Positions 560 to 52,011 of a stretch of 64,000 nucleotides of DNA are shown here, in pieces. The translations under genes were made by a program, and so were the position numbers. The first letter of the stretch is position 1, and every line of letters starts with the position of its first letter. A model generated the notes under the pieces. That model was given only the letters and a program-made list of their open reading frames with translations. It was not told the DNA's origin and did not search any database. Origin of the DNA: an uncultured bacterium (GTDB lineage Bacteria > Patescibacteriota > Patescibacteriia > UBA9570 > XYC2-FULL-38-9); the NCBI GenBank assembly GCA_937996685.1, contig CALKUP010000001.1, forward strand, positions 117,571-181,570, read 5' to 3'.

Positions 560-693
560 TGAATAATCATTGATTGTTCATAGCGAATAGTGAAATGGTC
601 TCTATATAATGAACACAATGAGGCTGAATATATTGCCTTGTTTATATTAACAAAACACTGTATGTTTTTTATAGATTGTACCTTGGAGGTAGC

Positions 694-1074
694 GTGAAGC
701 AACCGACTGTGGATGAGTGCCAGTGGGCAATCCGGATGTTCAGCTGTAAGGAGTCTGATCGCTCGAAGCAGAAATGGCAGGAGCTCTTCCGCTGGTTCGA
801 GGAGGTGACGGATCAGTACAGGGGAGATCAAGAAATGGCCGAATGGGGGGAAAGGATCGCACGGTCCCTCCATCTGGAAGAAGGCCTGACTGAGCACCGC
901 CTCTGGCTCAAGATCTGTCAGGTGCTGTTGGCTAGAGCTGAAGAGTACTGGAAGGCTTTTGATGAAGCTAACCAGGCGTATCGGGGTAGTCCGCGGCGAA
1001 GGCTCCGGGATCAGTTGGGTCCCGGAGGTCGGGTCCTCCGACTGAATCAGATGTGGGAGCTGCTTAACAGGTAA
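694..1074 (+). CDS. Hypothetical helical protein; GC-rich islet B
   Basis: ORF 676..1074; GTG at 694 preceded by GGAGG (685-689); GC-rich codons. Confidence 0.7.
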   Translation: MKQPTVDECQWAIRMFSCKESDRSKQKWQELFRWFEEVTDQYRGDQEMAEWGERIARSLHLEEGLTEHRLWLKICQVLLARAEEYWKAFDEANQAYRGSPRRRLRDQLGPGGRVLRLNQMWELLNR

Positions 1075-1096
1075 AAGATACGCAGCAACACGTCCC

Positions 1097-1173
1097 CTCG
1101 GAGGCGATAGACATGCAATACACAGGCATCAACCCTGTACACATGTTAATCGCTTTCGAGACGCTTTTCATTG
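1097..1173 (+). repeat. 77-nt structured repeat, copy 2, downstream of islet B
   Basis: Near-identical to 483-559; starts 23 nt after the stop codon. Confidence 0.95.
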
Positions 1174-1216
1174 CGGATAATGCTGTATTATCCTTAGTGA
1201 AATGCGAATAGATGAC

Positions 1217-1372
1217 TTGTCCCCAGGATGTGCATAACAATGGGGATAACGTGTAAAAAAGGTGGAGAAGAAGGCAGTGTGATTTATACACAAAGGATAA
1301 AAAAGTGACTAAAATCAGCTCTTTTTACAGATATTGACAAATTTTGTAGTTATGCATTGACAGTTATGCACA
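1217..1372. promoter_or_regulatory. DnaA-box cluster (oriC candidate or DnaA-regulated promoter)
   Basis: TTGTCCCCA 1217, TGTGCATAA 1229, TGGGGATAA 1241, GGTGGAGAA 1261, TTATACACA 1284, TTATGCACA 1364 versus TTATNCACA. Confidence 0.65.
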
Positions 1373-1385
1373 AAATGCGTATAAT
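1357..1385 (+). promoter_or_regulatory. Consensus sigma70 promoter of rpoBC
   Basis: TTGACA (1357-1362) N17 TATAAT (1380-1385). Confidence 0.85.
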
Positions 1386-1686
1386 CATTGAGATATTCAT
1401 GAATTTGAGCCAGAGTGTCTTGTACCGGTTTTTATCCGTCTGTCGAACGATATTTTCCTAGAAATAGTGAAAAACGTTCGAAAAAACACAATTTTCGTGA
1501 CACACGTCATTTCATAATACAACTGCACAATGAACCGAATCTTTCACAATACGAAAGATCCGGATTTTTGTGTTCTGCGCTGATTTTCGCAGAAAAAGCA
1601 GTATCATGAATAGATGTGTGCGGCGAAAAATAGTCCGTAGGGAAGTGCCTACAATTATATAACTAATTTTTTAAGGTTTACGCTCT

Positions 1687-4600: not shown

Positions 4601-5049
4601 AGATCCATCAACGTTCAATTGGGCCATACAGTCTTGTGACACAACAACCTCTCGGTGGTAAAGCACAATTTGGTGGACAACGTTTCGGAGAAATGGAAGT
4701 GTGGGCGTTGCAAGCATATGGCGCGGCATACACATTGCAAGAAATGTTGACAATTAAATCCGATGATGTTCCAGGTCGTTCAAAAGCATACGAAAGTATC
4801 ATTAAGAGCGAGCCGATCCGAATGCAAAATGTTCCAGAATCATTCAATGTCTTAGTTCGAGAATTGAAAGGCCTCGCCCTTGATGTCGAATTATTGAATG
4901 ATGACGGCGAAGCAATTGATGACCTTGAAGACAAGCCGAAATATGTTGCGCCACCGGAAGCAGCGAACGAATATTCTGAAGATGAAGGTATCATCAAAGT
5001 TGATCGGGACGCTGATATCGATGAGCCCGCTGAAGACGACTTGAAATAA
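1687..5049 (+). CDS. rpoB: RNA polymerase beta subunit
   Basis: [40 protein letters not shown]. Confidence 0.99.
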
Positions 5050-5075
5050 TCAATTGAATTTAAGAAAATACGCCT

Positions 5076-8990: not shown

Positions 8991-9008
8991 TTGATTGCGA
9001 TACAACAG

Positions 9009-9040
9009 AAAAAAAGCCAGGGTATGTCCCTGGTTTTTTT
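9009..9040 (+). terminator. Intrinsic terminator after rpoC
   Basis: GCCAGGG-loop-CCCTGGT flanked by A and T tracts. Confidence 0.85.
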
Positions 9041-9107
9041 GTATTCAAACAACAAACTGGACAAACGCGATATTTTTTGCTATAATGTATTTATAAATTG
9101 CAATTCC

Positions 9108-10769: not shown

Positions 10770-10779
10770 TACAATTGCC

Positions 10780-12609
10780 ATGAGTACATTTGAACAGCGA
10801 CGAGCGACACCAGTTGGTGAGTCTGCGTCATCTCCTGAAGCGGTTGTTGCTATTCAAAAAGGTTTGCAGCAAGTGCGTGAGATTGAAAAAGCGATTATTG
10901 ATGCGCGGACAGAGGATCAAACAAGTGATATTTCAGGTTTTGCGACTGAATTAGAATCAATCGCCGAAACAGCCGAGAGTCTCTTTGTGTCTGTGGCAGC
11001 TCGTGGGGCATTAGAGCATGTGGTTGCAAATGATATCCCAGCGCTCCGTTTTTTATATTTTAATGCAGGGGACCGAAAGGGGAAATTTCTTGCGACGGCC
11101 AGTGATTATCAAGGTCTTGCGGAGGAGGGTGTGGTTGTTGGAGGAATGTATAATGGCGCAACAGAAGCGTATACGTTGAAAACGTTATTCGATGATCCGC
11201 GTGTGTTGCCGTTTCAAGGCGATCGCTCAACTGAAGAGTGTGTGTTATTGTTTCAAGAAATGCAGCGCCCATTGGTTCGTCGATATCTCGAGAGTCAATT
11301 GAATGTGCGGTTTGCTGATTTGAATGTGCGCGCGCAGTTGCAATGTATTGAGTATTTAGTGAGTGGTGACCGGCAGCTCATAGAAGCACTGTCAACAATT
11401 ACACATCGAGACGGTCTTGAAGCCGCTCAGTTTTTGCAATTATTTTTTTCTTTAACAGAAAGTGTTGCCATGGCTGTGCCGATTATTGAGGCTGGCAGAA
11501 CACTTCCAGTGTCAGAATTGAATGACATTGCCCGCGGATATAACGGTGCAATGCGTGGAATTGAAGCGATTGAACAACGGATTTCCGATGCAATGCATCT
11601 GAAAAATCAGGCAGATGCTTCTGCTGTTGACCGAGTTGATACACGACGTGTTGCGCAGGCTTGGGTGCGTCGTGCAAATCGAGCTCTGCAAAAAAGCTTG
11701 GGAGAACCGGCGCATGTGACGCAGTTATTTCAAGGGATTGAGCGTGATGCCTTCTTTTTTTCAGCACTGCTCACTGAAACACTAAAGCAACAAGCTGGTG
11801 ATTTTTCTTTTGAAGATTTTGTCGGTGTTTCATATGAGCAAATTGATGGCGCAGTTCTTGCGGCAGACGAGATGGGTCTCCGAGATCAATGTCTCGCGAT
11901 TGCTCGAGAGCATTACGCGAAAGCGTCACCAGCGCTGGTTGAGCGATTGCAAGCATTATTATTTCCGCAAGACGAAGCAGGTCAGACGCGTCTCGAACAA
12001 AATCAATTTTCATTTGTGTTACGCAACGGCCGGCTTGAAGCCTTTTTGAGAGCGCAGCCAGCAGCGGATGAGAGTGTGTTTGTCGCAGCGCTGCAAGTGC
12101 ATCCGACGCTCCAAGGTGCGGGCGTTGGCGAAGCACTGCTTGATCGAACAGTTGTGCAATTTGCGAAAGAGCGGCTGGTTCGCGGAACCGTTGTTCCTGA
12201 AATCCAAGCAGGTGTGCATTATGTTGAAACGCTCGGCAATACATTAACTGGTTTTACTGAACCACAGGCAACCGGAACGCCATACGGGTGGTTCACAATG
12301 GAGTTAGATTTACGGCCAGATGCCGCTCGCTATGTATTGCAGTCACCTGAAAAAACATCAGATGTATTAGAGGCTGAATCACGTATCAATCTTGATGAGG
12401 ACGCGATCGCAGACATTCTTACAGAGCGTCCGCAGTATGTTGTGATGCAATACGCAATGCAAACTCCAGAAGATATTCGTGTAATGACAGATCGTGTGCG
12501 GCAGATGTTAGAGACAGGGGAATATCGTGTTGTGCGGATGTTTGGGAGCGCTGCAGATGCAACGCAACGGCTATACGGATTTGAGCGTGTCCCACAAAGC
12601 GAGAAATAG
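10780..12609 (+). CDS. Protein with C-terminal GNAT acetyltransferase domain
   Basis: VHPTLQGAGVGEALL (Q/RxxGxG acetyl-CoA motif A); ATG 10780 just after the upstream stop. Confidence 0.7.
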   Translation: MSTFEQRRATPVGESASSPEAVVAIQKGLQQVREIEKAIIDARTEDQTSDISGFATELESIAETAESLFVSVAARGALEHVVANDIPALRFLYFNAGDRKGKFLATASDYQGLAEEGVVVGGMYNGATEAYTLKTLFDDPRVLPFQGDRSTEECVLLFQEMQRPLVRRYLESQLNVRFADLNVRAQLQCIEYLVSGDRQLIEALSTITHRDGLEAAQFLQLFFSLTESVAMAVPIIEAGRTLPVSELNDIARGYNGAMRGIEAIEQRISDAMHLKNQADASAVDRVDTRRVAQAWVRRANRALQKSLGEPAHVTQLFQGIERDAFFFSALLTETLKQQAGDFSFEDFVGVSYEQIDGAVLAADEMGLRDQCLAIAREHYAKASPALVERLQALLFPQDEAGQTRLEQNQFSFVLRNGRLEAFLRAQPAADESVFVAALQVHPTLQGAGVGEALLDRTVVQFAKERLVRGTVVPEIQAGVHYVETLGNTLTGFTEPQATGTPYGWFTMELDLRPDAARYVLQSPEKTSDVLEAESRINLDEDAIADILTERPQYVVMQYAMQTPEDIRVMTDRVRQMLETGEYRVVRMFGSAADATQRLYGFERVPQSEK

Positions 12610-13332
12610 CGATTTGTGCATTTGCGCGATATGTTCGTGGTGAATCATTGCCGCGGCTGGGGTGTTCGTGTGCAAAACATAAAATGCAACTGTGTCGTTG
12701 TAAATTTCAACTGGTGTGACAAACGGGTATTTTTCCGCGTCTAAAAATTTGCAGGTCGTGTATTCTGGGTTGATTTGTTTCGCGAGCTCTCGAGATTCTG
12801 GCGTGTCTGTGAAAATAATATATTTATGAATCTTCTTCGCAATGCGTTGTTTCATATATTCCGCATTCAGCTCCTCAGCAAAGGCGTTAATGGTTTGGCT
12901 ATTCGCAAAGGTGTAAATAGTATCTTTGGCTTGGAGTGAATCAAAGAGCGCTTCTTTCATTTGCTCTGGGCCTTCATAAAACCGCATGCCTGGTTTTCCG
13001 AGGAGGGTATTGTAATTTCCGGTCAGCTCCCGAATCGTTTCATTCATTTCGCGCACTTGCAGAGCAGTGGACCGTTCTTTTTCTGTAATAAGAGCTGCGA
13101 GATTTTGCGGATGACTACTGCGGTAATAGGCGACACGCCCATCTTTTCGGTGCTCAACTAACCGTTTGGCGCTGAGTTTTTGCAAGGCATCATAAATATT
13201 CGCACGACTCAAAGCAGTCGCTTTTTGTATATTCGGAACAGTGAGCTCGCCCTTATCTTGGAGGAGGAGATAGATAGTGGTTTCCGCAGACGAGAACCCG
13301 AATTCCGTTAAAATAGTGATTGTAGATAGCAT
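12571..13332 (-). CDS. TrmB-family transcriptional regulator
   Basis: N-terminal wHTH (GFSSAETTIYLLL...LSRANIYDALQKL) plus effector domain (VEIYNDTVAF); TGGACA-N17-TATACT promoter on - strand at 13340-13368. Confidence 0.85.
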   Translation of the reverse strand: MLSTITILTEFGFSSAETTIYLLLQDKGELTVPNIQKATALSRANIYDALQKLSAKRLVEHRKDGRVAYYRSSHPQNLAALITEKERSTALQVREMNETIRELTGNYNTLLGKPGMRFYEGPEQMKEALFDSLQAKDTIYTFANSQTINAFAEELNAEYMKQRIAKKIHKYIIFTDTPESRELAKQINPEYTTCKFLDAEKYPFVTPVEIYNDTVAFYVLHTNTPAAAMIHHEHIAQMHKSLFLALWDTLKSV

Positions 13333-13442
13333 AGAATGGAGTATAGCAGAATAATCTTGATTTGTCCAATAATTATCAGACAAATGATTGCTTTAATATT
13401 AGCAAAATATATCAAATATATACACATCTGTCGACAATAGTA

Positions 13443-13620
13443 TTGACAAATTCATCATATCTTGTCATACTACGTAGTCTTGTGAATCACGGTTTACAAG
13501 ATTGCACATTTCAATAAGAACAGTTTTGTCAAAAAGGTTGCAGGACAGAAGTTGGTGACGCTCACCATTTTCCGCCCTGCAACCTGATGTCTCAGGCTCT
13601 GTATGGGATTTGGAGGTCAC
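13443..13620 (+). promoter_or_regulatory. Promoter plus structured leader of islet C (hairpin, boxA-like, hairpins, SD)
   Basis: TTGACA-N17-CATACT; hairpin 13477-13502; TGCACATTT 13503; AGGTTGCAGG/CCTGCAACCT stem; GGAGG 13612. Confidence 0.7.
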
Positions 13621-14025
13621 ATGACCAACACCGCCACCCCGATGTCCGCATTTGAGACCGTCAGCACCACCGAGGCGCCCGCGTGCGCGTCGCATCCCTT
13701 GACCGAGGGGGTGGTCCCCCACAACGCCAGCCCGCGCGAGCGCGCGTGGGCGGACTGGGTTCTCACCCAGGCCTTCCGCGCGGAGTTCCCGGCCGAAAAG
13801 GGCTGCGGGCAGGGCTACATGAAGAACTTGGGAAATCCCGGGTCGCGCGCGGTTCCGACAAGTGTCCGGACCGTATCTTCCCCGGGCATGACGCAGATCC
13901 GCCTGCTGACGGCGGAAGAGGTCGCTGTCCTGCGTGTCATCTGTGACATGCACGGTTACCCCAGCACCTCAACCAAGGTGCTGGACCCGGGCACCGAAGA
14001 CGCTCGGATCGAGATCCACTACTAG
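13621..14025 (+). CDS. Hypothetical protein; GC-rich islet C
   Basis: ORF 13603..14025; ATG 13621 after GGAGG; very GC-rich. Confidence 0.7.
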   Translation: MTNTATPMSAFETVSTTEAPACASHPLTEGVVPHNASPRERAWADWVLTQAFRAEFPAEKGCGQGYMKNLGNPGSRAVPTSVRTVSSPGMTQIRLLTAEEVAVLRVICDMHGYPSTSTKVLDPGTEDARIEIHY

Positions 14026-14322
14026 GATCTCCGAGCCCGGAGTAGACATCTCCGGATAACGAAACAAAACTGTCTCAATCGGTCGGCGGCGCAATTCTTC
14101 GGAATTCGCGTCGCTGACCTCTTCTTCTTTGCGCAGCTTGTGATCGTTGTAACACAAGGTGAATAAAGAAGCGGAAATTCCGCTGTACTTCTCCGTCTAG
14201 ATTTTTTCAGACAGAAGATATACCTAATATTAGTAATAAAAAATATTTTTTATACACACCGTTATATGCGTGTACGATGATATTTTGTATACTAACGGTT
14301 ATACATTAGTAAGATACTTTTT

Positions 14323-16710
14323 ATGTCAGAAAAAAGCCTCTGGATGCATAAATCAAATAGTCAAGGTAGAAATAATCACGATAAAAAAATCATTTCAGAG
14401 CAAATAGACTCAATTGATATAGATAGTGAGATAGTTACAGAGTCAACACGTTTTGCTCAAATGTTACTAGATGATCAAGGTTCTGATATTGTTACGGCGC
14501 TTGAAAAAAGTGGCGTATCTGCATCAGATATAGAGCTTGTTTTTTCTCTTTTAGTAAGTCGTTCAGATGAGGCCATGGTTTCCTGGGGTTACGGAGACGA
14601 TGTAGAAAAGCGCCCCCTGTCTGATTTGTCTCAGCGTGATTTTTATCGAGCTCAAAATTTTAATTACAGGTTAGGCAAAATATTAAAATTATTAGCACTA
14701 CAAGGTAAAATTAATATACAAAGAGTATTATTGGATGTTTTTGATAGTGTAGATGCAAAAAATGAGGAAAAAACAAGTGTCATGTCTTTTGTGGATAGCC
14801 AACTTGATCCTGATGTTCAGTCTGACGAGAGTACAATAATTTTTTTTGAAAGTATTAAGGGGCAATTTTATTCAGATGTTCTCACGGTGTTATTGGCAAA
14901 GCATGATTACAATTTCATATTAAAATATGAAAGTACATTGTCATTATCAAGCGCGCAAATTTCTTTTTGCATTGACCAGATGGTCGCCAATGGTGAATTG
15001 ACGCAGCTGATTGAGCTTGCTCGTTATCGTCATATTGGTCAAGCATTTATTACAACTTTTAAAGAAAATGTTTTAGAAAAATTATCAATAGAGCAATATA
15101 TTGCATTATTAGAGCCTGAAGACAATTACGTTGTGCCGTACTATTTTCTTGACGAAGAAAAAATAATGCAACACCAATTTACTGATACTCCAAAAGATCG
15201 TGATCTTATAAAAAAGATTTTATATGTTTCAAGCGATCTTTCAGAAGCTTGTGTTCAGTATTTAGCACGACAATTATCAATTTTTGATCACGTTGCTGAT
15301 TCTCCCTTTTTTGTTAAAAGTAATATAGTCCGTGTCATTCAACAAGTTGATTTAAGTCGGCCAATTTTTACAGAACACCCAGATGAGGCAATGAATATAA
15401 TTCTTCAATTTCCTTGGTTGCAGGCTGATGGTAATGGAGAAACAGAATGGGAAAAAATGCCTATTGGACTACCTGAAGAACGTCAGGCTACGCTGAACAT
15501 GCTTTTACAAAAAGTACCAACAGACCATCAAGAGGCATTTATAAAGCGCTTTAATGAACAAGGTATAACTGATGGCCAGATGAAGTCTTGGCTTGGCCGC
15601 CGCGCTTTTAAAGCGCCTGATGAGTGGACTGAGGCGGTTATAGGTGATTTAATGTTTACTCGTTTGCAAAACCGATTTAGTCACAATATTCATGATGCGT
15701 CTTATTTTTTGTCCCATTTTCAAGCGCCTGAATCCTTAAAAGGAGATGATTCCGAGATCGTAAAAAAGCGAAAAAGTTATAATGCGACAGCTCAAAGGTG
15801 GTTAAAAAATAATATCTCAACACCTGCTGAGACTTTGGTATTAGCTTGGCAAAACCGTGATGCAGCTCTAGTAGATGGTTGCGCTGACAATCCTTCTGCA
15901 ATTATTCTATGGACAAAAGCGAATGCGGTGCGTCGTGTGTTAGATGGATTCAGTTTTGATGAAGCACCAAATCGTTCTGTTATAGAAGCTTTTTTAATTG
16001 AAACAGTACGTCAGACGTCGCCAGAAAAGGCAGTTGATATCTTCAGGAGAATTCAACTAGCGCATAATATTGAAGCGTTATTACGTCCGGTTAGGATTGA
16101 TCTTGGAAATGGGTATATCGGTGAGATTTTTCGAAAAGATGATCCTCGAGGGACAACAATTGGCGCTGATACGGGGTGTTGTATGTCAGTTGGAGGAGCG
16201 TCTGAAAGTTGTATTATCGCTGGCTACACAGATCCTCGCTATGGTTTTTTTGGACTATATCGTCAAGGAGAGTTAATTGCGCAGTCTTTTTTATACACAA
16301 ATCCAGAACAAGCTCCTGGTGTGCTTGTGTGCGACAATATTGAAGCTAATAAAGCTCGGGATCTGAAAAAAATACTCGATTTGTATCAAAAATTTTTCAC
16401 ACTGTATGGAGCGGCGAGTCCCGTCTCTTTTTCTCAGATATATGTTGGAGAAGGTTATTCATCTATTGGGTTGCATGATTTGTCGGAAGTAGATAGGTTA
16501 AAGCGCTCAATGTCTCCTTTGCCAATTTATACTGATGCTGAAAAGCAACGATTGTTAGCGTCGGTGCAAATCACTCCATCCCAGGCTAGTGAGTCTATTC
16601 AATGGCTGGACAGTGATCCTGTTGCCCGATTTAATACGGGTCCAATAGCGATAGATTGGGAGGCGGATGACGATGAGGATGAGGACGGAGACGATGATGA
16701 TGGTTTTTAA
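14323..16710 (+). CDS. Hypothetical protein with conserved-looking C-terminal TGCC...AQS...DNIE domain
   Basis: 795-aa ORF in an AT-rich block; acidic tail. Confidence 0.8.
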   Translation: MSEKSLWMHKSNSQGRNNHDKKIISEQIDSIDIDSEIVTESTRFAQMLLDDQGSDIVTALEKSGVSASDIELVFSLLVSRSDEAMVSWGYGDDVEKRPLSDLSQRDFYRAQNFNYRLGKILKLLALQGKINIQRVLLDVFDSVDAKNEEKTSVMSFVDSQLDPDVQSDESTIIFFESIKGQFYSDVLTVLLAKHDYNFILKYESTLSLSSAQISFCIDQMVANGELTQLIELARYRHIGQAFITTFKENVLEKLSIEQYIALLEPEDNYVVPYYFLDEEKIMQHQFTDTPKDRDLIKKILYVSSDLSEACVQYLARQLSIFDHVADSPFFVKSNIVRVIQQVDLSRPIFTEHPDEAMNIILQFPWLQADGNGETEWEKMPIGLPEERQATLNMLLQKVPTDHQEAFIKRFNEQGITDGQMKSWLGRRAFKAPDEWTEAVIGDLMFTRLQNRFSHNIHDASYFLSHFQAPESLKGDDSEIVKKRKSYNATAQRWLKNNISTPAETLVLAWQNRDAALVDGCADNPSAIILWTKANAVRRVLDGFSFDEAPNRSVIEAFLIETVRQTSPEKAVDIFRRIQLAHNIEALLRPVRIDLGNGYIGEIFRKDDPRGTTIGADTGCCMSVGGASESCIIAGYTDPRYGFFGLYRQGELIAQSFLYTNPEQAPGVLVCDNIEANKARDLKKILDLYQKFFTLYGAASPVSFSQIYVGEGYSSIGLHDLSEVDRLKRSMSPLPIYTDAEKQRLLASVQITPSQASESIQWLDSDPVARFNTGPIAIDWEADDDEDEDGDDDDGF

Positions 16711-16718
16711 TTCTTTCT

Positions 16719-19163
16719 ATGCGTCGTAAAGTTTACGTACCAGAACAATTGATGCAAGAAAAAAAAGTAGAACCCCCAAAGGTATCTAGAGAATTGCATT
16801 TAGAGGTTTTAGATGCATTTCGAGCCCCGAATGATGCCGACTTTCAGCGTTTGTATGGAATGGCAGTAATTCATTCTGATAGGGCAAGAGTTGAGCAATT
16901 AGAAGCTATATTTGAAAAAAGATCATCGCTTGTAAGCTCGACGGAATTATTAATTCCAGATCAGATTGTTCGTGGAAACTTTTTTGGTTCCGATGCAGAT
17001 ATTGATACACGCTTAACTCATAGATATGATGACGTTGTCGCTGGTATTGATTTTTGGATGAATTTTAATTCATCTACCGAAGAGATTGAAAGTGGAAAAA
17101 TAATTGGCGTTGATGTTACAGCGAGTCCCCGTGAAATTGGTGGTAAATTAAGAAAAATAGAGTCACAGCTTCGTGCGGGGCACACTGCAACAATAAAATA
17201 CTTCGAATCACCTAAGGTGGATAAATTGGGCAGGTCGTATGTCCATCGTGGTAAGCAAGATGTAATTCGTTTAATTACTTCATTAGACCGCTTATTATGG
17301 TCTTCAATTGCTGAAAATCCGGAAAGCCTTGATGAGCACCCGTATAAGGCCATTGTGTTAGAACAGTTGTTGTTGCAGTTAGAAACATTGTTGGCGTATT
17401 CAGAAACTGTTAATCATCGAGAGTTTTTGCGTTATATAAAAGCAAGGAGCGCCCTTGAGACGGCCCTACAAAACACGGTCATTCCTAATGTGGACGAGAG
17501 CGATTTTAATAATAATCCTAGTTACACGCTCATGCGAACAGCCTTGATTGATGTTTTTGGTATTGATGTAATCGGAGAAGAGGGTGGCTTGTTGCTTCAA
17601 CGATATATGAAAAATCCAGTAGTGATTACACCTCCGGTTGCTGAGGCGCCTGGTTCTGAAATCAACACAACAACAGATTTAACGAAGGCTTATTCATTTG
17701 TTGGCATACAAGATATTCAGAAGCGAGTGCAGGCAAGTAAAACAACTGTGCTGCGGTATTTGCATGAGCTATTTAATGATGAAGATTTTTCTTCAGACGA
17801 AGAAGGCTCTCAAGCATTTCGTATACGGTCTGATATGGCGGACCAGCTTGTGGAGCGTATACAGAATTTAAGCACGGAGCTCCCGTTGCCTCCAGAAAAC
17901 TGGCAATCGATGCGCAGCGTCGCTGAAGGTCTTGGCTTGTCGCCGAATAGCTTGCGTCGGCATTTCCAGGCATTTATAAAATTTAGTGATTCTGCCCAAG
18001 TAATGGTAGCGAGAAACACAATGGGGCATGACGGCTTATTCTTTTCCCCAACTGCTGTAGAGCAAGTATTAAAGGCAAAGTTTTCTGGAATTAGTTTGCG
18101 GCCGCGTATTGAAAAGCCAGTTGATCCAATTTGGTACGATGTAGATCGTGTTGCTTTAGAATTAGGAGTGTCATGGATATTGGCAAAAAGTTTATTAGAG
18201 TGGTCTGTAGCTGAGCATCCAGAATGGAAAAAAGATAAAAAAACCGCCTCTCATAAAAAGGGTTACCCGGTTTATCATATTGATGCAGTTAATGAGGCAA
18301 AGGTCATTTTTGCAGACGAAGGATTTGGTCGAATTAAAAAATTAACTGATCAAGGCTACATGTCCAAGAGTCAGGTATGTGCGTTACTGAATATAAGTTC
18401 ATTTAGTGAATTTCAAAATGACTTTTTTCCAGATGATGTAAATGCTGTTGTCGTTGTACGTAGTGGATATAAGGCAGAGCAAAAAAATTTGATTTTTTGT
18501 GCGCCATACTTCATTGAAGCTCTTCTTGCAGAAATTGAAAAGCCAATTCCAGAAGGATATGCTTTGGAATCTAGCATTGCTTCTAAAAGAGGAAAGCGTA
18601 CGATACCAGATACTATTATTGGTAGGTTAATTACAGAAATGATTGAGGCTGGCGTGTCACAAGATGATATTTATGTTGAAAGATATTCAAGGCCAGGAGG
18701 GTTGGGGGGTGAAAGCACAAGAAAAACACGGTATTATGCGCCTGCATTTGAAAGTCGTTATATTATGCATGACCAACAAAATGAAATTCCAACTGGTTAT
18801 CAAAATGTGACGGATTTTTATAGTCGATACCATTTAGGAAGAAAGGAAGTAAAAGAGCATGCGGATCGTATTGCCGTTTCAATAGGAGATCAATGTATTT
18901 ATAAGGTGACAAAAGGGAAGATGGTGTATGCTTTTTATGCCCCAGAAGTCGTGGCAGCTTTAGACAAAATTTTACCCCCTGCAAATTGGTATACTACAGC
19001 AGAAGCTGCTAGTCTTTTAGGTTTAGAGAATAAAAAATTGCTTTATAATTTACGTGATAGCTTAATGAGTCTTGATGATAAATCTGTCCGATATTTAGGT
19101 TCAGCTACAAAGCGAGCGTGGTTTTTTTCACCAGAATTTATTAATACTTTAAAAAAATCTTGA
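16719..19163 (+). CDS. Hypothetical protein: possible PD-(D/E)xK-like N-terminus plus array of excisionase-type HTH repeats
   Basis: YDD..GID...GVDVT motif; repeats such as WQSMRSVAEGLGLS and WYTTAEAASLLGL, several followed by FF(S/A)P-like motifs. Confidence 0.7.
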   Translation: MRRKVYVPEQLMQEKKVEPPKVSRELHLEVLDAFRAPNDADFQRLYGMAVIHSDRARVEQLEAIFEKRSSLVSSTELLIPDQIVRGNFFGSDADIDTRLTHRYDDVVAGIDFWMNFNSSTEEIESGKIIGVDVTASPREIGGKLRKIESQLRAGHTATIKYFESPKVDKLGRSYVHRGKQDVIRLITSLDRLLWSSIAENPESLDEHPYKAIVLEQLLLQLETLLAYSETVNHREFLRYIKARSALETALQNTVIPNVDESDFNNNPSYTLMRTALIDVFGIDVIGEEGGLLLQRYMKNPVVITPPVAEAPGSEINTTTDLTKAYSFVGIQDIQKRVQASKTTVLRYLHELFNDEDFSSDEEGSQAFRIRSDMADQLVERIQNLSTELPLPPENWQSMRSVAEGLGLSPNSLRRHFQAFIKFSDSAQVMVARNTMGHDGLFFSPTAVEQVLKAKFSGISLRPRIEKPVDPIWYDVDRVALELGVSWILAKSLLEWSVAEHPEWKKDKKTASHKKGYPVYHIDAVNEAKVIFADEGFGRIKKLTDQGYMSKSQVCALLNISSFSEFQNDFFPDDVNAVVVVRSGYKAEQKNLIFCAPYFIEALLAEIEKPIPEGYALESSIASKRGKRTIPDTIIGRLITEMIEAGVSQDDIYVERYSRPGGLGGESTRKTRYYAPAFESRYIMHDQQNEIPTGYQNVTDFYSRYHLGRKEVKEHADRIAVSIGDQCIYKVTKGKMVYAFYAPEVVAALDKILPPANWYTTAEAASLLGLENKKLLYNLRDSLMSLDDKSVRYLGSATKRAWFFSPEFINTLKKS

Positions 19164-19250
19164 TTGATATACTCACAGTTTTGGTGCTTTCGTTGTCGCC
19201 AGCCTCATTGAAGAGGTGCTTGGAACCATCTAATATCACTTAATAATCTA

Positions 19251-19422
19251 TTGACGCATTGCTGCTTTTGTGGCACTGTATTGAGCTTTCTTGCCGCAAG
19301 CAGGAAAGGTGTTCTTTGTCATGATATTTGATCAGGTTCGTGAAGATTGAGAAAAAGTTTCTTTGTTTTCGCGAGCCTGATCAATCCACATGAAGTGGAG
19401 AATATGGCTTATGGAGTTTCCT
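19251..19422 (+). promoter_or_regulatory. Promoter plus structured leader of islet D
   Basis: TTGACG-N17-CACTGT with TG extension; hairpin 19285-19310; TGTTCTTTG 19310; TTGATCAGGTTCGTGAAGA/TTTTCGCGAGCCTGATCAA stem; GGAG 19413. Confidence 0.7.
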
Positions 19423-19806
19423 ATGCGCACTGTTTCCTTCCTTGAGCGCCATGATCGCAAGCTTCTCAGCCTCGAAGATCGGCAGTACCTGAGCCAGGTG
19501 TATGAAAATACAAGTACCGCTAGCGATGATTTTTTGCTCGGTTGTATACAGGCTGCGGCTGAAAAGAACGGCCTTAGTTTTGAGCAGGCGGTTGATGTCT
19601 TTGACCGGATAGTTGCCTGGTATAATTACGTAAACATCGACGGGGATGAGCTTGCTCAGATGATCGGAGGTGACATCCTGCGCCTTCTCCGAGAATCTGA
19701 ACAGGAACTCAAGGAGGAAGCCACTACCCTGCGGTGTGTCTTCGGCATGTTCGGCATCTGCGTCGTGTTGTTTGTCGTTTGGTTCATCCGGGTGGTGATT
19801 GGCTAG
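19423..19806 (+). CDS. Hypothetical protein with C-terminal TM helix; moderately GC-rich islet D
   Basis: ORF 19390..19806; ATG 19423 after GGAG; hydrophobic C-terminus. Confidence 0.7.
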   Translation: MRTVSFLERHDRKLLSLEDRQYLSQVYENTSTASDDFLLGCIQAAAEKNGLSFEQAVDVFDRIVAWYNYVNIDGDELAQMIGGDILRLLRESEQELKEEATTLRCVFGMFGICVVLFVVWFIRVVIG

Positions 19807-19952
19807 TTCCTGCTCGACTTGGTTCACGACGTTCCGCCGCCGCTCTAGACGAGAGCGCGACGCGGCAAAAAAAAGAAGAGGTTCGTTATTACAACGCGAC
19901 CTCTTCTTACATCTTCCATTGGACAGAGTGTAGTCTCTGTCTAGCGGATGGT

Positions 19953-21029
19953 TTATTTTTTGTAGTTACTGGAACTTTCGATCATTTTCAGTGAATGTGG
20001 ATGTGATTCCGCAAAGCCGGCTGAAGTAATTTGAATAAAGTCTGGTTTCGTTGCGAGCGCTTTCAAGTTTTTTGCGCCATTATATCCCATTCCAGCCCGC
20101 AGCCCGCCAGCGAGTTGAAAGACAACATCTCCAACTGCGCCTTTATAATCCGTGTATCCAACAATTCCTTCCGCAACAAGTTTCTTTTTGTCCGTTGTGT
20201 CTTTTTGTCCGTAGCGATCTTTTGAGCCCATTTCCATTGCGTCCGCTGAGCCCATGCCGCGATACATTTTCAGTTTTTTACCGTCTTTTGTGATTACTTC
20301 ACCAGGCGCTTCGTCTGTTCCAGCAAATAATCCACCCGCCATCACAACTGTTGCTCCAGCAGCGAGAGCTTTGACGATATCGCCACTATATTTAATTCCA
20401 CCGTCTGCGATAATCGGTGTCTTGGTTTTTTTTGCAGCAGCAACTGCGTCCATCACAGCAGTGAGTTGGGGAGCGCCAACACCAGCAATCACACGCGTTG
20501 TGCAAATCGATCCTGGGCCAACACCGACTTTTACAACGTCAGCACCAGCCGCGATCAAGGCTTTTGTCCCAGCTCCAGATGCAACGTTTCCTCCAACAAC
20601 AACGATCCTTTTCCCAAAGGCTTTTTTAATCCGCTTCACTTGGTTTAAAACTGATTGCGCATGACCGTGTGCTGAGTCAACAACAATCATCCGCGCTCCA
20701 GCTTCAACCAATAATTTCGCGCGTTCAAATTCTTCGTCGCCACCGCCAACACTGGCTGCGCCAATTAAGCCGTCTGCAACCAATTGCTTCACCATTCCGG
20801 CTTGTGTTTCTGCTGCCATGTTTTTGTGAATGACTCCAAGTCCGCCGAGCTCGCTCATCGCTTTTGCCATTGCGTATTCTGTGACCGTATCCATTGGCGC
20901 GCTCAAAAATGGCAGTTCAAGTTTGATGCCAGCGAGGTTCACGCGCAAATCAGTGTTGCGTGGGGAAACCTCAGAATAGCGGGGAATGAGGAGAACGTCG
21001 TCGTATGTAAGGCCGAGGCGAATTTGCAT
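19953..21029 (-). CDS. guaB: IMP dehydrogenase, short form without CBS domains
   Basis: [35 protein letters not shown]. Confidence 0.93.
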
Positions 21030-34526: not shown

Positions 34527-34528
34527 TG

Positions 34529-37504: not shown

Positions 37505-37528
37505 ACGTATTTTTCAGATCCCATCGTT
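37505..37528 (+). promoter_or_regulatory. Candidate ECF promoter ACGTA-N14-TCGTT, copy 1
   Basis: Same motif and spacing at 38287 and 40551. Confidence 0.7.
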
Positions 37529-37599
37529 TCCTGTTATTGCACGCCTTGATTGCGCCTGCCAACACACAATACCTGTGTGTTTGTTCCTTGGAGTTCATC

Positions 37600-38184
37600 A
37601 TGATCCGTTTTGTTTCCGTAGCGCTGTTTTTCTGGCTCACCCTCTACAGCGCCTCTCCTGCGTGGGCTGGCGGTGGGTGGGGTATTCCAGTGAACCCGGA
37701 ACTCTGCGCTGAAGACGGCACGCCGATGGATGCTGATGGCGACGGCATCTTCACCCACATTGAAGACAACGACGGTGATGGCGTCTCGGTCTGCTACGAA
37801 GGCAACCACCTTGTGTGGGATCAGCCGGGTTGGGTGCAGTTCATGACCGCGAACTTCACGCGGATTCAGAACAAGCCGGGTGACCTTCAGTTGTACATGC
37901 TGCAGCACATGTACACGCCCTACCTCCTGGACTGGGTATATTTCTTCCAGGAGATGACAACGGTCCGGACTCCTGGAGGCGGTCTCGGTTATTCGTTTGC
38001 CGATGTCGAAGGAGATTGTGACGACAACGATCCGAACCGCTTTCCCGGCAACTGGGAGGTGATGTTCGACGGCGTCGACGCTGACTGCAACCCGATGAAC
38101 GAGGTCTGCATTCCTGCGATTGTTCCACCTGGTTGGCCGGGGTACGCCTGGGCTGTTGGGATGAAGTATTGGGACTGTCCGTGA
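37600..38184 (+). CDS. Secreted protein with DxDxDG and MopE-like DCDDxDP metal-binding motifs; GC-rich islet F
   Basis: Signal peptide ending PAWA; DADGDG, DNDGDG, GDCDDNDPNRFPG..DGVDADC; GGAG 37590. Confidence 0.8.
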   Translation: MIRFVSVALFFWLTLYSASPAWAGGGWGIPVNPELCAEDGTPMDADGDGIFTHIEDNDGDGVSVCYEGNHLVWDQPGWVQFMTANFTRIQNKPGDLQLYMLQHMYTPYLLDWVYFFQEMTTVRTPGGGLGYSFADVEGDCDDNDPNRFPGNWEVMFDGVDADCNPMNEVCIPAIVPPGWPGYAWAVGMKYWDCP

Positions 38185-38286: not shown

Positions 38287-38310
38287 ACGTATATCTGTAT
38301 CCATGTCGTT
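38287..38310 (+). promoter_or_regulatory. Candidate ECF promoter, copy 2 (autoregulatory)
   Basis: ACGTA-N14-TCGTT overlaps ATG 38303, which implies the true start is 38345. Confidence 0.65.
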
Positions 38311-40506: not shown

Positions 40507-40513
40507 AATTGAT

Positions 40514-40541: not shown

Positions 40542-40550
40542 GGTATTCAT

Positions 40551-40574
40551 ACGTACTTTTGCATATCCATCGTT
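40551..40574 (+). promoter_or_regulatory. Candidate ECF promoter, copy 3
   Basis: ACGTA-N14-TCGTT; leader hairpin begins at 40581. Confidence 0.7.
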
Positions 40575-40660
40575 GTAGTGTATGCAGTCGTGATTCGGCG
40601 ATTGTGTACCTTGAGATCACCTTTCAGCGACCAAGATCGCTCATTGCAACTGGAGTTCTC

Positions 40661-41188
40661 ATGCTTCCCATGTTTTTGGCATTCCTCGCAAACCACACCG
40701 ACCCGCAGATTTTCCAGGTGGTAGGCGACGCGCTTGTCACCGCTCCTTCGGATGGCTGCCTCATTGAGCAAAATGTCTGGGTCGACCTCGACGGCGACTT
40801 CCACTTCCAGCATTGGGAGGATCGGGACCTCGACGGCTACGGAAACTGCTACGACGAGCAGGGCCGAGTTGCCTGGATGTTTCCGGGTCTCGCTCGTGAG
40901 TTCACCGTGAATTTCGGTGACTACATGAACCACGCTGCGCAGGCACGTGCGCATTGGCCGTTGGGTCTCGCGATGCTCCCGATGAATGCTCCGGAGCAGT
41001 TCAATCTGCCCTGGACCATGCCGGGTTGGAGCTTCTGGTTTGATCCGATCACGCATCGGCAATACTTGAACTTCCAGGAAGCGATGGCGGGAGATTGTGA
41101 TGACAGCGATCCGAATCGATTCCCGTATAACCAGGCTGACGTGCCGGGTGACGGGTTCGACGAGAACTGCAGCCCCTTCGATGAGTAA
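40661..41188 (+). CDS. Paralog of 37600-38184 (MopE-like motif); GC-rich islet G
   Basis: DLDGDFHFQHWEDRDLDG, GDCDDSDPNRFP..GDGFDENC; GGAG 40652. Confidence 0.8.
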   Translation: MLPMFLAFLANHTDPQIFQVVGDALVTAPSDGCLIEQNVWVDLDGDFHFQHWEDRDLDGYGNCYDEQGRVAWMFPGLAREFTVNFGDYMNHAAQARAHWPLGLAMLPMNAPEQFNLPWTMPGWSFWFDPITHRQYLNFQEAMAGDCDDSDPNRFPYNQADVPGDGFDENCSPFDE

Positions 41189-41877: not shown

Positions 41878-41883
41878 TTTTTT

Positions 41884-43527: not shown

Positions 43528-43619
43528 GAGGTAAGAGATACAAGTAGCGTCCATACAAACCGTCACACATGTGGCGGTTTTTGGTTGCCAAATCACTCAC
43601 GCTACCTTATATATACACT

Positions 43620-45254: not shown

Positions 45255-45333
45255 TGTGTTCAATAAACGCAGGCTTGAAAAAAGCCTTGTTTTGTGATAG
45301 AATAGATATAATTGCAAAATAAAAAGAAAAAAT

Positions 45334-46764: not shown

Positions 46765-46821
46765 CATTGACTTTTTCGAATTTTTGTGGTATGAATTGAA
46801 GTAATAACTTCTCTTATTTTT

Positions 46822-48837: not shown

Positions 48838-48855
48838 TAATGGACACACTAGGCA

Positions 48856-48890
48856 AATAAAAAATCGGGACACGCTCCCGATTTTTTATT
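48856..48890. terminator. Bidirectional terminator
   Basis: AATAAAAAATCGGGA-loop-TCCCGATTTTTTATT between convergent genes. Confidence 0.85.
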
Positions 48891-48908
48891 TCTTGTAGTA
48901 TTTGACTC

Positions 48909-49469
48909 CTACATGCCAAGCGCAAGAATTGCCTGTGACCAAGCAAGTGCGACAACAATAAAGACTGTCACAACAGTTGCAAGAACATACAGTTCGCCGA
49001 GTCGTGTGATTCTGTGCATGGCTGGGCTGTGAACGATTTGTTTTGCGGCTGTTTCGACTTGGAGTAATTCACGTTTCATTGTCACGGTAGCTGTTTTAGC
49101 AGGGGTGCGACGAGACGCTGTTTTTTTCACCGCTTTTTTTGCAGTAACCTTTTTCGCAACAGGCTTTTTGGCAGCAACTTTTTTTACAGTACGAGCTTTT
49201 TTTGTTTGCACAGCCTTTGCTGCTGTTGTTTTTGTGCTACGCTTTTTTGCTGAAGTTGCAGTTGTAGTAGATTTTTTCTTCGTTGTTCCGGTAGTCGTTT
49301 TCTTCACCGCTTTTTTTGCAGTAACCTTTTTCGCAACGGGTTTTTTGGCAGCAACTTTTTTTGCGCGCACTGTTTTTGTCATTGGCGCACTCGCAAGCGA
49401 CAACACTTCATCCTCGAGTGTGACTGTGCGCTTTCGATTTTGTTGTTGTTTTGGTTTTTGTACCGCCAT
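48909..49469 (-). CDS. Histone H1-like Lys/Ala-rich protein with C-terminal TM helix
   Basis: KKVAAKKPVAKKVTAKKAVKKT twice (DNA repeat about 49126-49185 and 49303-49362); hydrophobic tail. Confidence 0.75.
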   Translation of the reverse strand: MAVQKPKQQQNRKRTVTLEDEVLSLASAPMTKTVRAKKVAAKKPVAKKVTAKKAVKKTTTGTTKKKSTTTATSAKKRSTKTTAAKAVQTKKARTVKKVAAKKPVAKKVTAKKAVKKTASRRTPAKTATVTMKRELLQVETAAKQIVHSPAMHRITRLGELYVLATVVTVFIVVALAWSQAILALGM

Positions 49470-49527
49470 ATTTTTTATTCCTCCAAATAATTAGAGACAG
49501 TATATCGAATTTTTGTATTCCGTGCAA

Positions 49528-51735
49528 TTAATTCCACGGAGATTTCCAGACAGCAAGTTCTTTTGGAATTTCATCGAGAAAGCGTGACGGTGGATTGACG
49601 TGCATTTCTCCGTAGCGCATGCGTTGTGATGCGAATAAACAATACACTTGATGTTCCGCGCGAGTCAGTGCCACATAACATAGTCGACGTTCTTCTTCCA
49701 TTTCTTGTGGGTCAACCAGTGAGCGAGAGTGGGGGAATAATCCTTCTTCCATTCCAACGATAAAGACAATCGGAAATTCCAAACCTTTCGCCGCATGCAC
49801 AGTCATCAGTTTCACAGCATTTTCTGTTTCATCAACTTTGTCTTGATCAGACACTAATGCAACATCTTCTAAAAATGTTTGCAACCCTTCTTGTCCGCGT
49901 AAGTGCATGAATTTTTGTGTTACATTTTTCAATTCCAAGACATTTTCCCAACGCATTTCCGCTTCTTCTTTGGTTTCTGAAGTTTTTTCCAAATGCTCTT
50001 TAAAGCCAATTTCTGTTGTGAGTAATTGCAGAATTTCAGTTGGATTGAGTTCTGCCATTTTGTCATGAACAGTCGCGAGTTCCGCCGCGAATTGATAAAA
50101 CTTTTGTAACCGCGCACTTTGAATTTCCGGGATATCGTTTCGCGCCGCTTCAATGACCGTCATGTTTCGGGTTCGAGCGAATTGTTCAATTTTGAACCAG
50201 GTGCGATCACCAAGTCCGCGCGCTGGCACATTCACAATTCGTTCCATCGCCACCCAGTCACTCGGGTTAAACAACACTTTCATATACGCAAGCAAATCTT
50301 TGATTTCACGGCGTTCATAAAATCGTAAACCACCAATTAATTGATAGGGAACACCGTATGTCAAAAAGGCTTCTTCAAGCGGACGAGACTGCGCATTGGT
50401 GCGATATAACACAACGTACTTTGAAAAGTCGATGGAAGATTTATTGTTTTTGACGTAGTCCGCCAAGTCTGATGTTTCTTTATGTGCTTGAAACATTTTA
50501 CTGCCCATGATGCGGTCCAAAATACTTTCACCTGTTTGAATTGGTGTTTCGTCTGGATCTGGTTGCGCGTATTCATCGTCATACGTCACTTCATCATCAG
50601 AGCCGTCTGTTCCGCTGCCATCATGTTCTTTGATTTTTCCGGTAATCACTTCAACAATATATTTTCCTTCAGCGTCACCGTTTTCTAATTCACGAACAAT
50701 AATTGCATCACCGCCAGGATTTTCCGTCCACAACTTCTTTTTCTTTTGCTTTGGATTGTTCGCGATAATTGCGTTACTCGCGTTGAGAATTGTTTGGGTT
50801 GAGCGATAATTTTGTTCTAAGAAAATTTCAGTCGCATCAGGATAGTCTTTTTCAAATTCAAGAATGTTGCGAATGTCGGCTTGTCGCCATGAATAAATTG
50901 ATTGCGCGTCATCTCCAACGACGCAAATATTTTTGTGAGCAGCTGCGAGCATTGTCACGAGTTGGTATTGCGCTTGGTTGGTATCTTGGTACTCATCAAC
51001 CAAAATAAATTGCCATAAGTCTTGATATTTTTTGAGCACCTCTGGATATTGCTTGAACAGCTCAACGGTTTTCATGATCAAGTCATCAAAGTCGAGGGCG
51101 TTGTTGGTTTGTAAATCAGCTTGATATTTCGGATACACAACCGTCACTACTTCTGATAACGCATCTGAGCTTTCAGCGGCAACTTGCCCTGGAGTTTTTA
51201 ATTCATTTTTGGCTTTACTGATTTGCCAATGGACCAACGACGGCGCAATTTGTTTTGTGTCGTATCCATTATCCTTCATGATTTTTTTCACCAATGTCAG
51301 TTGTTCGTCTGAATCGTAAATCGTGAAATTGGTCTCATATCCAATGGCAGAAATTTCGCGGCGGAGAATACGGGAGCAAACCGAATGGAATGTGCCCATT
51401 ACTGGTGGGTGTTCCAATTTTCCAACCAACGCTTCCATCCGCTCTTGCATATTGCGCGCTGCCTTGTTTGTAAAGGTCACGGCGAGGATGTTCCATGGTT
51501 TTGCAAAACCACCAGCGACAAGATAGGCAATGCGATGCACCAAGGTTTTGGTTTTGCCAGAGCCAGCACCAGCGAGAATCAAGACTGGGCCGTGCATTGT
51601 TTCAGCGGCAAGACGTTGCTGTTCGTTTAATGAATGGAGGATTTGATCAGCGACAGAGTAGACGCCGACAGAGCCAGCAGAAGCAGGGGAGGGCGTTTGA
51701 GATTCGTTGGGAGTTGATTTGGATTTTTGAGACAT
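49528..51735 (-). CDS. pcrA: ATP-dependent DNA helicase PcrA/UvrD
   Basis: AGAGSGKT, VDEYQDTN, VGDDAQSIY, TVHAAKGLEF, EERRLCYVALTRA. Confidence 0.96.
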   Translation of the reverse strand: MSQKSKSTPNESQTPSPASAGSVGVYSVADQILHSLNEQQRLAAETMHGPVLILAGAGSGKTKTLVHRIAYLVAGGFAKPWNILAVTFTNKAARNMQERMEALVGKLEHPPVMGTFHSVCSRILRREISAIGYETNFTIYDSDEQLTLVKKIMKDNGYDTKQIAPSLVHWQISKAKNELKTPGQVAAESSDALSEVVTVVYPKYQADLQTNNALDFDDLIMKTVELFKQYPEVLKKYQDLWQFILVDEYQDTNQAQYQLVTMLAAAHKNICVVGDDAQSIYSWRQADIRNILEFEKDYPDATEIFLEQNYRSTQTILNASNAIIANNPKQKKKKLWTENPGGDAIIVRELENGDAEGKYIVEVITGKIKEHDGSGTDGSDDEVTYDDEYAQPDPDETPIQTGESILDRIMGSKMFQAHKETSDLADYVKNNKSSIDFSKYVVLYRTNAQSRPLEEAFLTYGVPYQLIGGLRFYERREIKDLLAYMKVLFNPSDWVAMERIVNVPARGLGDRTWFKIEQFARTRNMTVIEAARNDIPEIQSARLQKFYQFAAELATVHDKMAELNPTEILQLLTTEIGFKEHLEKTSETKEEAEMRWENVLELKNVTQKFMHLRGQEGLQTFLEDVALVSDQDKVDETENAVKLMTVHAAKGLEFPIVFIVGMEEGLFPHSRSLVDPQEMEEERRLCYVALTRAEHQVYCLFASQRMRYGEMHVNPPSRFLDEIPKELAVWKSPWN

Positions 51736-51767
51736 AGTTCAAGCAGTGTAGCACAGTTTTGCTTTTC

Positions 51768-51783
51768 CCGAAAAATGCCCGAA
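51768..51783 (-). promoter_or_regulatory. TTCGG-N6-TTCGG direct repeat upstream of pcrA
   Basis: + strand reads CCGAA-AAATGC-CCGAA. Confidence 0.7.
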
Positions 51784-51789
51784 TAGGCA

Positions 51790-52011
51790 TTGACTTTTTG
51801 CCCAAAATATGGTAACTAATAAGGAGTGCGGAATGCAATTTCGCATTTTTGCCCTTTTACAAAAAACAGGATTGTTGCAGTTGGTTGACTCTAATATTAG
51901 TCAATAATCAATCAACCGCAGCAATCCTGAATATCGCATGCATCTGACAGATCCGTCGGGTGTGTGCAACGCATCGAACTGCCCAGCATTGACTGGGTTT
52001 TGGAGTCTCTC
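51790..52011 (+). promoter_or_regulatory. Promoter candidate plus structured leader of islet H
   Basis: TTGACT 51790 (weak -10); hairpin 51822-51850; TGCCCTTTTACAA 51850; GGATTGTTGC/GCAGCAATCC and GCATGCATCTGAC/GTCGGGTGTGTGC stems; GGAG 52002. Confidence 0.65.

Follow-up and report, generated by a model that had tools for sequence, protein, structure and literature searches.

A boxA-like motif at the foot of 5' hairpins marks a subset of leaders of GC-rich genes in a small patescibacterial genome

Why should protein-coding messages of a bacterium with a very small genome begin with a hairpin and a word that resembles boxA? boxA is known from ribosomal RNA (rRNA) operons, lambdoid phages, CRISPR arrays and a few autoregulated genes, and its function is mostly explained by Rho. 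The question is raised by a 64,000-nucleotide (nt) stretch of DNA, here called the window (G000:C1:117571-181570), which is part of the 1.14-Mb, 98.7% complete genome G000 of an uncultured member of the Patescibacteria, a bacterium with a tiny genome that is likely host-dependent. An earlier note on this DNA had claimed that six otherwise dissimilar leaders of GC-rich genes carry the 9-mer TGYHCHTTK at the 3' foot of a 5' hairpin, and had proposed that these messenger RNAs (mRNAs) are handled like untranslated RNA. All six 9-mers are present, and the motif is a genuine signal: its enrichment is restricted to the sense strand and to the ~60 bases at the 5' end of leaders that belong to GC-rich genes led by a Shine–Dalgarno (SD) sequence.

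The comparison rests on a division of the genome into two gene classes. Our own two-model gene caller assigns the 1008 genes of G000 to about 900 native and about 90 GC-rich genes, the latter mostly single and scattered through the genome. On the nine main contigs (nine small contigs excluded), an SD-like GGAG or GAGG lies upstream of 64 of 83 GC-rich but only 31 of 827 native genes; the caller favours SD starts in both classes, which inflates counts (89 vs 60 without this reward, genome-wide). For native genes, the SD frequency equals background (30 vs 35 of 821).

In an unanchored comparison excluding the six window leaders, TGYHCHTTK occurs in 13/68 GC-rich and 11/283 native upstream regions (p 8e-5), and the complete set of 74 GC-rich upstream regions holds 21 sense vs 3 antisense matches. 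A promoter-anchored set from six genomes comprised 118 GC-rich (high GC content at third codon positions, GC3, plus SD) and 1213 native leaders, which a promoter score of at least 9, a length of at least 55 and the removal of two duplicate leaders reduced to 42 and 216. With the window held out, the motif is found in 7/39 GC-rich vs 0/213 native leaders (3/20 vs 0/147 in the other genomes only) and its core GNNCNTT in 18/39 vs 24/213. The search range of +15 to +62 was picked after inspection of the data; the 7/39 vs 0/213 result holds over four promoter thresholds and three 5'-proximal ranges and is gone beyond +62. The 5' hairpins are also stronger in GC-rich leaders (z < -2 in 20/32 vs 36/172 native), with GNNCNTT at the hairpin foot in 14/32 GC-rich vs 1/35 native leaders. 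De novo expectation maximisation (EM) on 32 anchored held-out leaders, a set still holding two near-duplicate pairs, returned GaTGcTCgTTgt as top motif, with a log-likelihood of 52 vs 40 for one native sample.

A blind test across related genomes points the same way. Promoter plus motif gives ~750 matches in 303 of the 401 genomes of the class, against ~448 matches in 256 genomes for a G/C-swapped control, and 30 loci were returned per search for comparison. A hairpin ends at the motif in 14/30 blind loci vs 3/30 controls, an SD-led open reading frame (ORF) follows in 16/30 vs 5/30, and GC3 is well over that of the upstream genes in 12/30 vs 0/22; the 3' flank A(A/C)A, absent from the search pattern, follows 11/30 blind matches vs 2/30 in the control, although p-values overstate such differences because related genomes are not independent. 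None of the 30 blind loci is rRNA (0/30). Rfam gave no match at gathering score in the window, where only chance-level matches occur at C, and just transfer RNAs (tRNAs) in the 30 blind loci. Two of the 30 loci are leaders of nusA, in line with the Nus autoregulation described for Gammaproteobacteria in passages of 10.1101/091223. As a side observation, the boxA-like TGCCCCTTTTTTACAAA follows the nusA promoter in L273 (G055:C37) and L274 (G119:C8), which belong to one family, possibly reflecting Nus autoregulation.

Within the window TGYHCHTTK has 11 plus-strand and 7 minus-strand matches, so the pattern by itself is not rare and the signal is carried by position and gene class. Promoters, hairpins and start sites are all predicted, the promoter scores coming from a matrix trained on G000 tRNA promoters (Table 1). 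The order of hairpin and then box, asserted for all six leaders, applies to C, D, G and H, to F in part, and not to B, where no hairpin (z -0.2, -2.1 kcal/mol) and no good promoter were found. Likewise, a hairpin near the predicted start is supported in C, D and H by a predicted sigma70-like promoter and in G only via an element of the type recognised by extracytoplasmic function (ECF) sigma factors; no sigma70 promoter scoring above 4.7 was found for leader G, and because the ECF-type element ends 30 nt before the motif, G likely fits with a start of that type. The long stems said to follow the box in C, D and H do fold. From motif to start codon the distances are 118 (C), 101 (D), 56 (G), 162 (H), 18 (F) and 17 nt (B), and the F motif stands 53 nt from its ACGTA-N15-CGTT element. 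The 12-mer of leader C recurs behind a different hairpin, ahead of a different gene, at C3:71386 of the related genome G001. A further leader, that of the GAPDH-like gene just ahead of the window (~G000:C1:116770-116927), combines a hairpin with TGTTCTTTGAAAGG. In the minimum-energy fold of leader D, the box pairs with the SD region (unpaired probability 0.14 for the box, 0.06 for the SD). Record 8 of contig X1 from a public run (19070-19488) crosses the junction of native DNA, leader and ORF D with zero differences and may derive from the same sample. ORF C has no Pfam match, and ORF G is 36% identical to F over 140 aa, with a PF11617 match below cut-off.

Table 1. Predicted features of the six motif sites and their genes in the window (all on the plus strand).
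Feature	Position	Details
GC-rich GAPDH-like gene, 3' end	3..455 (+)	
Site B, motif merged with SD GGAGG	677-689 (+)	outside the hairpin–box order
ORF B	694-1074 (+)	
Leader C, predicted sigma70-type promoter	13443..13471 (+)	-35 TTGACA 13443-13448; -10 CATACT 13466-13471; score 14.9
Leader C, 5' hairpin	13476..13502 (+)	z -3.3; -10.1 kcal/mol
Leader C, boxA-like motif TGCACATTTCAA	13503..13514 (+)	31 nt after -10
Leader C, long stem	13535..13585 (+)	-28.9 kcal/mol
SD GGAGG of C	13612-13616 (+)	
GC-rich orphan ORF C	13621-14025 (+)	134 aa; GC3 0.85
Leader D, predicted promoter	19251..19279 (+)	-35 TTGACG at 19251; -10 CACTGT at 19274; score 9.4
Leader D, 5' hairpin	19286..19308 (+)	z -3.2; -9.8 kcal/mol
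Leader D, boxA-like motif TGTTCTTTGTCA	19310..19321 (+)	30 nt after -10
Leader D, long stem	19328..19384 (+)	-34.2 kcal/mol
SD GGAG of D	19397-19400 (+)	
GC-rich ORF D	19411-19806 (+)	GC3 0.60
Leader F, ACGTA-N15-CGTT element	37505..37528 (+)	likely ECF-sigma promoter (function inferred)
Leader F, hairpin	37561-37581 (+)	z -2.2; partial fit
Leader F, motif merged with SD, TGTTCCTTGGAG	37582-37593 (+)	
GC-rich ORF F, Cu-binding_MopE motif protein	37600..38184 (+)	GC3 0.70; PF11617 E 1.4e-6
Leader G, ACGTA-N15-CGTT element	40551..40574 (+)	likely ECF-sigma promoter
Leader G, 5' hairpin plus boxA-like motif TGTACCTTGAGA	40584..40616 (+)	motif 40605-40616; z -2.7
SD GGAG of G	40652-40655 (+)	
GC-rich ORF G	40661-41188 (+)	GC3 0.72; paralogue of F
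Leader H, predicted promoter	51790..51818 (+)	clear -35 TTGACT at 51790; weak -10 at 51813; score 3.7
Leader H, 5' hairpin plus boxA-like motif TGCCCTTTTACAA	51822..51862 (+)	motif 51850-51862, 31 nt after -10; z -4.1
Leader H, long stem, then two smaller stems	51867..51929 (+)	-28.5 kcal/mol
SD GGAG of H	52002-52005 (+)	
GC-rich ORF H	52012-53835 (+)	predicted lipoprotein; GC3 0.82

The ACGTA-N15-CGTT element also stands before an ECF sigma gene (38287-38310) and before the orthologue of this gene (G001 C3:38232), and two further intergenic copies occur elsewhere in G000; it may thus be an ECF promoter that is subject to autoregulation. Genes A and B, a GC-rich tandem pair, end in 3' trailers (480-594 and 1094-1208) that are 86% identical over 115 nt and form the same long hairpin.

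The likeness to boxA extends beyond the general pattern. In the sites that precede the 16S gene in 20 relatives, G reaches 0.70 and C 0.61 where TGYHCHTTK fixes these letters; these sites were picked by their 3' half, with the G and C positions not used, and two of them may have been misassigned. The fixed G, C and TT of the motif are thus in register with the 16S-leader site of the lineage, and together with the unselected 3' A(A/C)A flank they uphold the resemblance proposed in the earlier note. The comparison with the boxes of the genome's own rRNA genes, GAACTTTGAAAA (16S) and GAACGTTGACAA (23S), is divided, for both match GNNCNTT and neither matches TGYHCHTTK. One mRNA leader carries CGAACATTGACAA, a single letter off the 23S box, and the leader at C16:44295 has TGATCTTTGTCAA at a position matching the box of Bacillus subtilis rrn operons, in which, as described in passages of PMC13753749, a small 5' hairpin is followed directly by AUGAUCUUUGAAA, bound by NusB. 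The 16S (C15:154192) and 23S-5S (C1:69411) genes of G000 are themselves unlinked, each with its own promoter; both carry, at the predicted start, a box-like word of the GCTCT type, and AGCT occupies this place in several tRNA promoters.

The leader goes with the chromosome and not with its cargo, since near-identical leaders head different proteins in a sister species. Over 330 nt of one upstream region, G000 and G001 have almost the same sequence, promoter and hairpin included and the box without any change, but the proteins that follow are unrelated. In the slot of the GAPDH-like gene, the leaders of the two genomes are 82% identical, with changed hairpin arms and an unchanged box, while the proteins are only 30% identical. 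Nine GC-rich orthologue pairs have a median identity of 38% vs 77% for 541 native pairs; their GC content at four-fold sites (GC4) is 0.76 and 0.80, and their four-fold-site differences amount to 0.51 vs 0.54 for core genes, so that GC4 is kept despite near-core divergence, with no drift to native composition. G001 lacks, at the syntenic place, the 9-kb stretch 10772-19953 with its islets C and D. In nearby slots, other native-type and GC-rich genes are swapped, and within G000 near-identical leader pairs stand on different or distant GC-rich genes (C15:132933/134656, C2:103780/105719 and C15:84670/95423). The GAPDH-like protein has one relative at 73% and others at 38% or less among the 120 matches listed, so no donor is visible there, and no close relative was found in 400 genomes of the class. 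A donor search for metK over 1/64 parts of contigs gave a best identity of 65% among the matches listed and is uninformative on the donor.

What, then, does the element do? NusB, S10 and NusG score above the NCBIfam cut-offs and NusA above the Pfam cut-off in G000, and nusB is present in 38 of 41 genomes (G000 and 40 relatives); in G000 it lies next to rnc, which encodes RNase III (C15:144218-145367, L002). Of the genes nusB, nusG and rho, to which the earlier note had pointed, the first two are encoded and rho was not found. The view that these mRNAs are handled like untranslated RNA thus keeps the boxA likeness and the Nus genes on its side but loses protection from the cell's own Rho as a purpose, because no Rho was found here or in the 40 relatives. 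Given Nus genes without Rho, SuhB or leader–trailer pairing, the motif is likely a NusB–S10 loading site and not a standard anti-Rho signal. We consider it probable that it is a boxA site, which would load the Nus complex for transcription without a coupled ribosome.

We propose the following hypothetical sequence of events, in which (i) transcription is predicted to begin a few bases upstream of the hairpin; (ii) as the RNA leaves the polymerase, NusB would attach to the box together with free S10 (NusE) and join NusG and NusA, turning the polymerase into an rRNA-type complex that would transcribe these leaders, long and folded, and their GC-rich genes with no ribosome coupled to it; (iii) passage through hairpin-type stops and assisted RNA folding would yield a full-length, folded and initially ribosome-free mRNA; (iv) translation would be delayed and would start from an SD that native genes do not use. 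In Escherichia coli, the Nus complex counteracts termination at hairpin-type sites and covers the face of NusG that a ribosome would use (passages of PMC13753749), and other work credits it with aiding RNA folding (10.1101/091223).

Several results weigh against this proposal or limit it. The motif marks just a subset of GC-rich leaders, with the core in about half of the long ones (18/39), and an unanchored k-mer and EM search of 65 held-out upstream regions did not have it among the top results. The box is not always predicted to be single-stranded (unpaired probability 0.10-0.86), and in some other classes SD, spacer and TTG start combine to spell the same letters, a source of false matches. 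A rule derived from rRNA sites alone performed weakly: in the held-out own genome (p 0.02) it finds the box in 12/68 GC-rich vs 26/319 native regions and hairpin plus box in 6/68 vs 7/319; in G001 the box difference is not significant (2/17 vs 13/119), and in the related genome G008 the box is found in 11/35 vs 3/34 with 8 reverse-strand vs 11 sense matches. The genome's own rRNA boxes lie ~200 and ~300 nt after their promoters, lack a preceding 5' hairpin and have 3' halves that can pair with the 16S trailer, and part of the conservation of rRNA boxes may therefore reflect a processing stem. Rho was found in none of the 41 genomes (control searches matched in 9/14 and 8/14), and SuhB (PF00459) was not found in G000 and fell below cut-off in G001, though it was found in 32/41 genomes.

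Comparison with known systems shows the same mixture. In layout, the leaders are closest to the rrn boxA leaders of B. subtilis, with a small 5' hairpin directly followed by a box of the type G-N-N-C-N-T-T-(T/G)-A-(A/C)-A (passages of PMC13753749), and NusB, S10, NusA and NusG are encoded as for rrn antitermination. The element would thus act in the manner of an rrn boxA leader, from which it departs in four respects, namely Rho, SuhB, the trailer helix and the non-coding product: the rrn complex consists of NusB, S10/NusE, NusA, NusG, S4 and SuhB, whereas neither Rho nor SuhB was found in G000; SD-led ORFs follow the boxes, unlike in untranslated rRNA transcripts, and are spread over many unlinked accessory genes; there is no general leader–trailer helix (a gene's own trailer was the best of 21 in 4/111 GC-rich vs 4/120 sampled native genes); and the 3' half is looser. 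Like boxA in the suhB 5' untranslated region of E. coli (10.1101/091223 = PMC5725501), the box stands in an mRNA leader and could block translation at a distance. The Nus targets predicted in passages of that work number 0-7 sites per genome, searched within at most 50 bp of the start, with Rho-dependent termination as outcome; in contrast to suhB, the box here keeps its place with respect to the promoter, comes after a hairpin and belongs to a gene class of distinct composition in Rho-less genomes. With the boxA upstream of gammaproteobacterial CRISPR arrays, which serves non-coding transcripts and has the stated purpose of blocking Rho (passages of PMC13753749), the present sites share a use outside rRNA operons. 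Like lambda nut sites, they place boxA on mRNA with Nus factors.

Lambda nut sites have boxA and then boxB, a conserved hairpin to which N binds, whereas here the hairpin precedes the box and its sequence differs between leaders. Phage morons are single accessory genes with their own promoter. The GC-rich genes resemble them, and the horizontally acquired genes of Patescibacteria (PMC12455944), in atypical composition and patchy occurrence in sister genomes; unlike in morons, the leader here is chromosomal and outlasts its cargo, and diverged orthologues retain their high GC. The passages of PMC12455944 on gene transfer in Patescibacteria contain no leader signal.

The GC-rich class itself has features that any explanation must accommodate. 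The split between native and GC-rich genes recurs in G001 (758 kb read) and G008 (395 kb read), and in G011, G018 and G017 (~400 kb each) with few GC-rich genes. Predicted lipoproteins are strongly enriched in the class (17/123 GC-rich vs 22/2622 native genes in G000 and G001), and homologues with the MopE motif keep a GC3 of 0.74-0.91 even in a relative of 35% GC. GC-rich genes duplicate native gap, guaB and a LOG enzyme, and include purA (GC3 0.88, C1:67494-68762); a Lyase_1 (purB) match was not found in the G000 genome, and one GC-rich SD-led gene of G008 is purB-like by eye. The small contigs C8, C11, C12 and C17 of G000, with higher GC and atypical genes, are possibly contamination or virus-derived and were excluded from all counts. 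Adenine-specific mutagenesis was rejected as the source of the high GC: four-fold sites have A 0.10 and T 0.21 vs 0.31 and 0.28, with C doubled, and because T is also reduced, a pure A-to-N change would not give this pattern. A comparison of contigs found no variants bearing on it.

These features bear on an extension of the Nus explanation, compatible with it and in our view unlikely, according to which the small cell makes the messages, boxA and Nus keep them away from its ribosomes, end hairpins protect them, and a GC-rich host receives and translates them. At most a tentative idea is its general form, in which Patescibacteria would run a second genetic programme of GC-rich, SD-led, hairpin-capped mRNAs held off their own ribosomes and delivered to the host, and it is no less speculative that this programme would supply purine, S-adenosylmethionine, lipid-carrier, ion-transport and surface functions. 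The confinement of SD use to the GC-rich class, the persistence of high GC4 in the nine orthologue pairs, the lack of a visible donor for the GAPDH-like gene among the matches listed, the duplicated gap, guaB and LOG, and purA without a purB match would fit host translation, as would the repression of suhB translation by E. coli boxA even 100 nt from the SD (passages of 10.1101/091223). However, the cell's own 16S keeps its anti-SD, two blind matches head nusA, a gene used in the cell, box leaders hide the SD no more than other SD leaders (0.46 vs 0.48 unpaired), and no export route or host has been identified. Missing lipoprotein enzymes were considered as a sign of host processing and rejected, because lgt and lspA are present in G000 and in 39 and 38 of 41 genomes, so that lipoproteins of the class can be processed at home. 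Translation in the cell itself, only delayed, is the more economical reading, given the anti-SD kept by the 16S and the presence of lgt and lspA. Counting against it are the persistence of foreign codon usage, the gap, guaB and LOG duplicates, and purA without detectable purB.

The anti-SD offers a separate line of comparison. In a scan of 16S genes, only G563 lacks the anti-SD among the first 150 matches listed, and of five more genomes with a 16S found, three keep it and two were unreadable by the pattern used. The 16S 3' end without anti-SD (G563:C37, L323), while the family members listed keep it, is a natural test case of SD use; 2/4 distinct promoter plus motif loci of G563, few as they are, lead to SD-led ORFs. 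Loss of the anti-SD is described for part of the Parcubacteria, and the passages of PMC9297842 that report it do not mention NusB.

A switch of translation inside the cell, by which NusB–S10 on the box would repress, or would free the SD where the box pairs with it, and which would tie the genes to free S10 and growth state, is improbable. The suhB precedent of E. coli (passages of 10.1101/091223), the predicted box–SD pairing in D, the adjacency of box and SD in F and B and the nusA leaders with the motif in two related genomes speak for it; against it, box–SD pairing is not general, the suhB outcome depends on Rho, which was not found in the 41 genomes, and the regions upstream of G000 nusA, nusG, nusB and S10 have no TGYHCHTTK match. 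Slightly less credible still is an element unrelated to Nus, with the hairpin as a 5' stabiliser and the motif as a pause, cleavage or other-protein site that resembles boxA by accident. That 5' hairpins outnumber boxes (32/42 leaders vs 14 with a box at the foot), that the motif is less strict in its 3' half than the rRNA sites are and that rnc adjoins nusB would suit such an element, whereas the fixed positions, the unselected 3' flank and the layout shared with B. subtilis rrn (passages of PMC13753749) match boxA. Chance, for which the post hoc and degenerate consensus, the 18 window matches and the still frequent matches of the swapped control could be cited, or relics that arrived from donors with transferred genes, can be set aside almost entirely, being largely refuted by the held-out and blind tests and, for relics, by leaders conserved while the coding sequence was replaced or far diverged.

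In mostly openly available main texts, searched in part through top-ranked entries, we found no report of boxA leaders in Patescibacteria and no report of an SD and GC split of genes in this group. The role of the Nus complex without Rho is a question left open for B. subtilis in passages of PMC13753749, and genomes that keep nusB (38/41), have no detectable Rho (0/41) and carry boxA-like sites on a whole class of mRNAs provide a natural test of Rho-free Nus function. The motif also gives a 12-base handle on the split between native genes without SD and fast-changing GC-rich genes with SD, one that is amenable to mutation, in vitro binding and searching. Reading of the GC-rich messages by the host, if it occurs, would reveal a new means by which an attached symbiont influences its partner.

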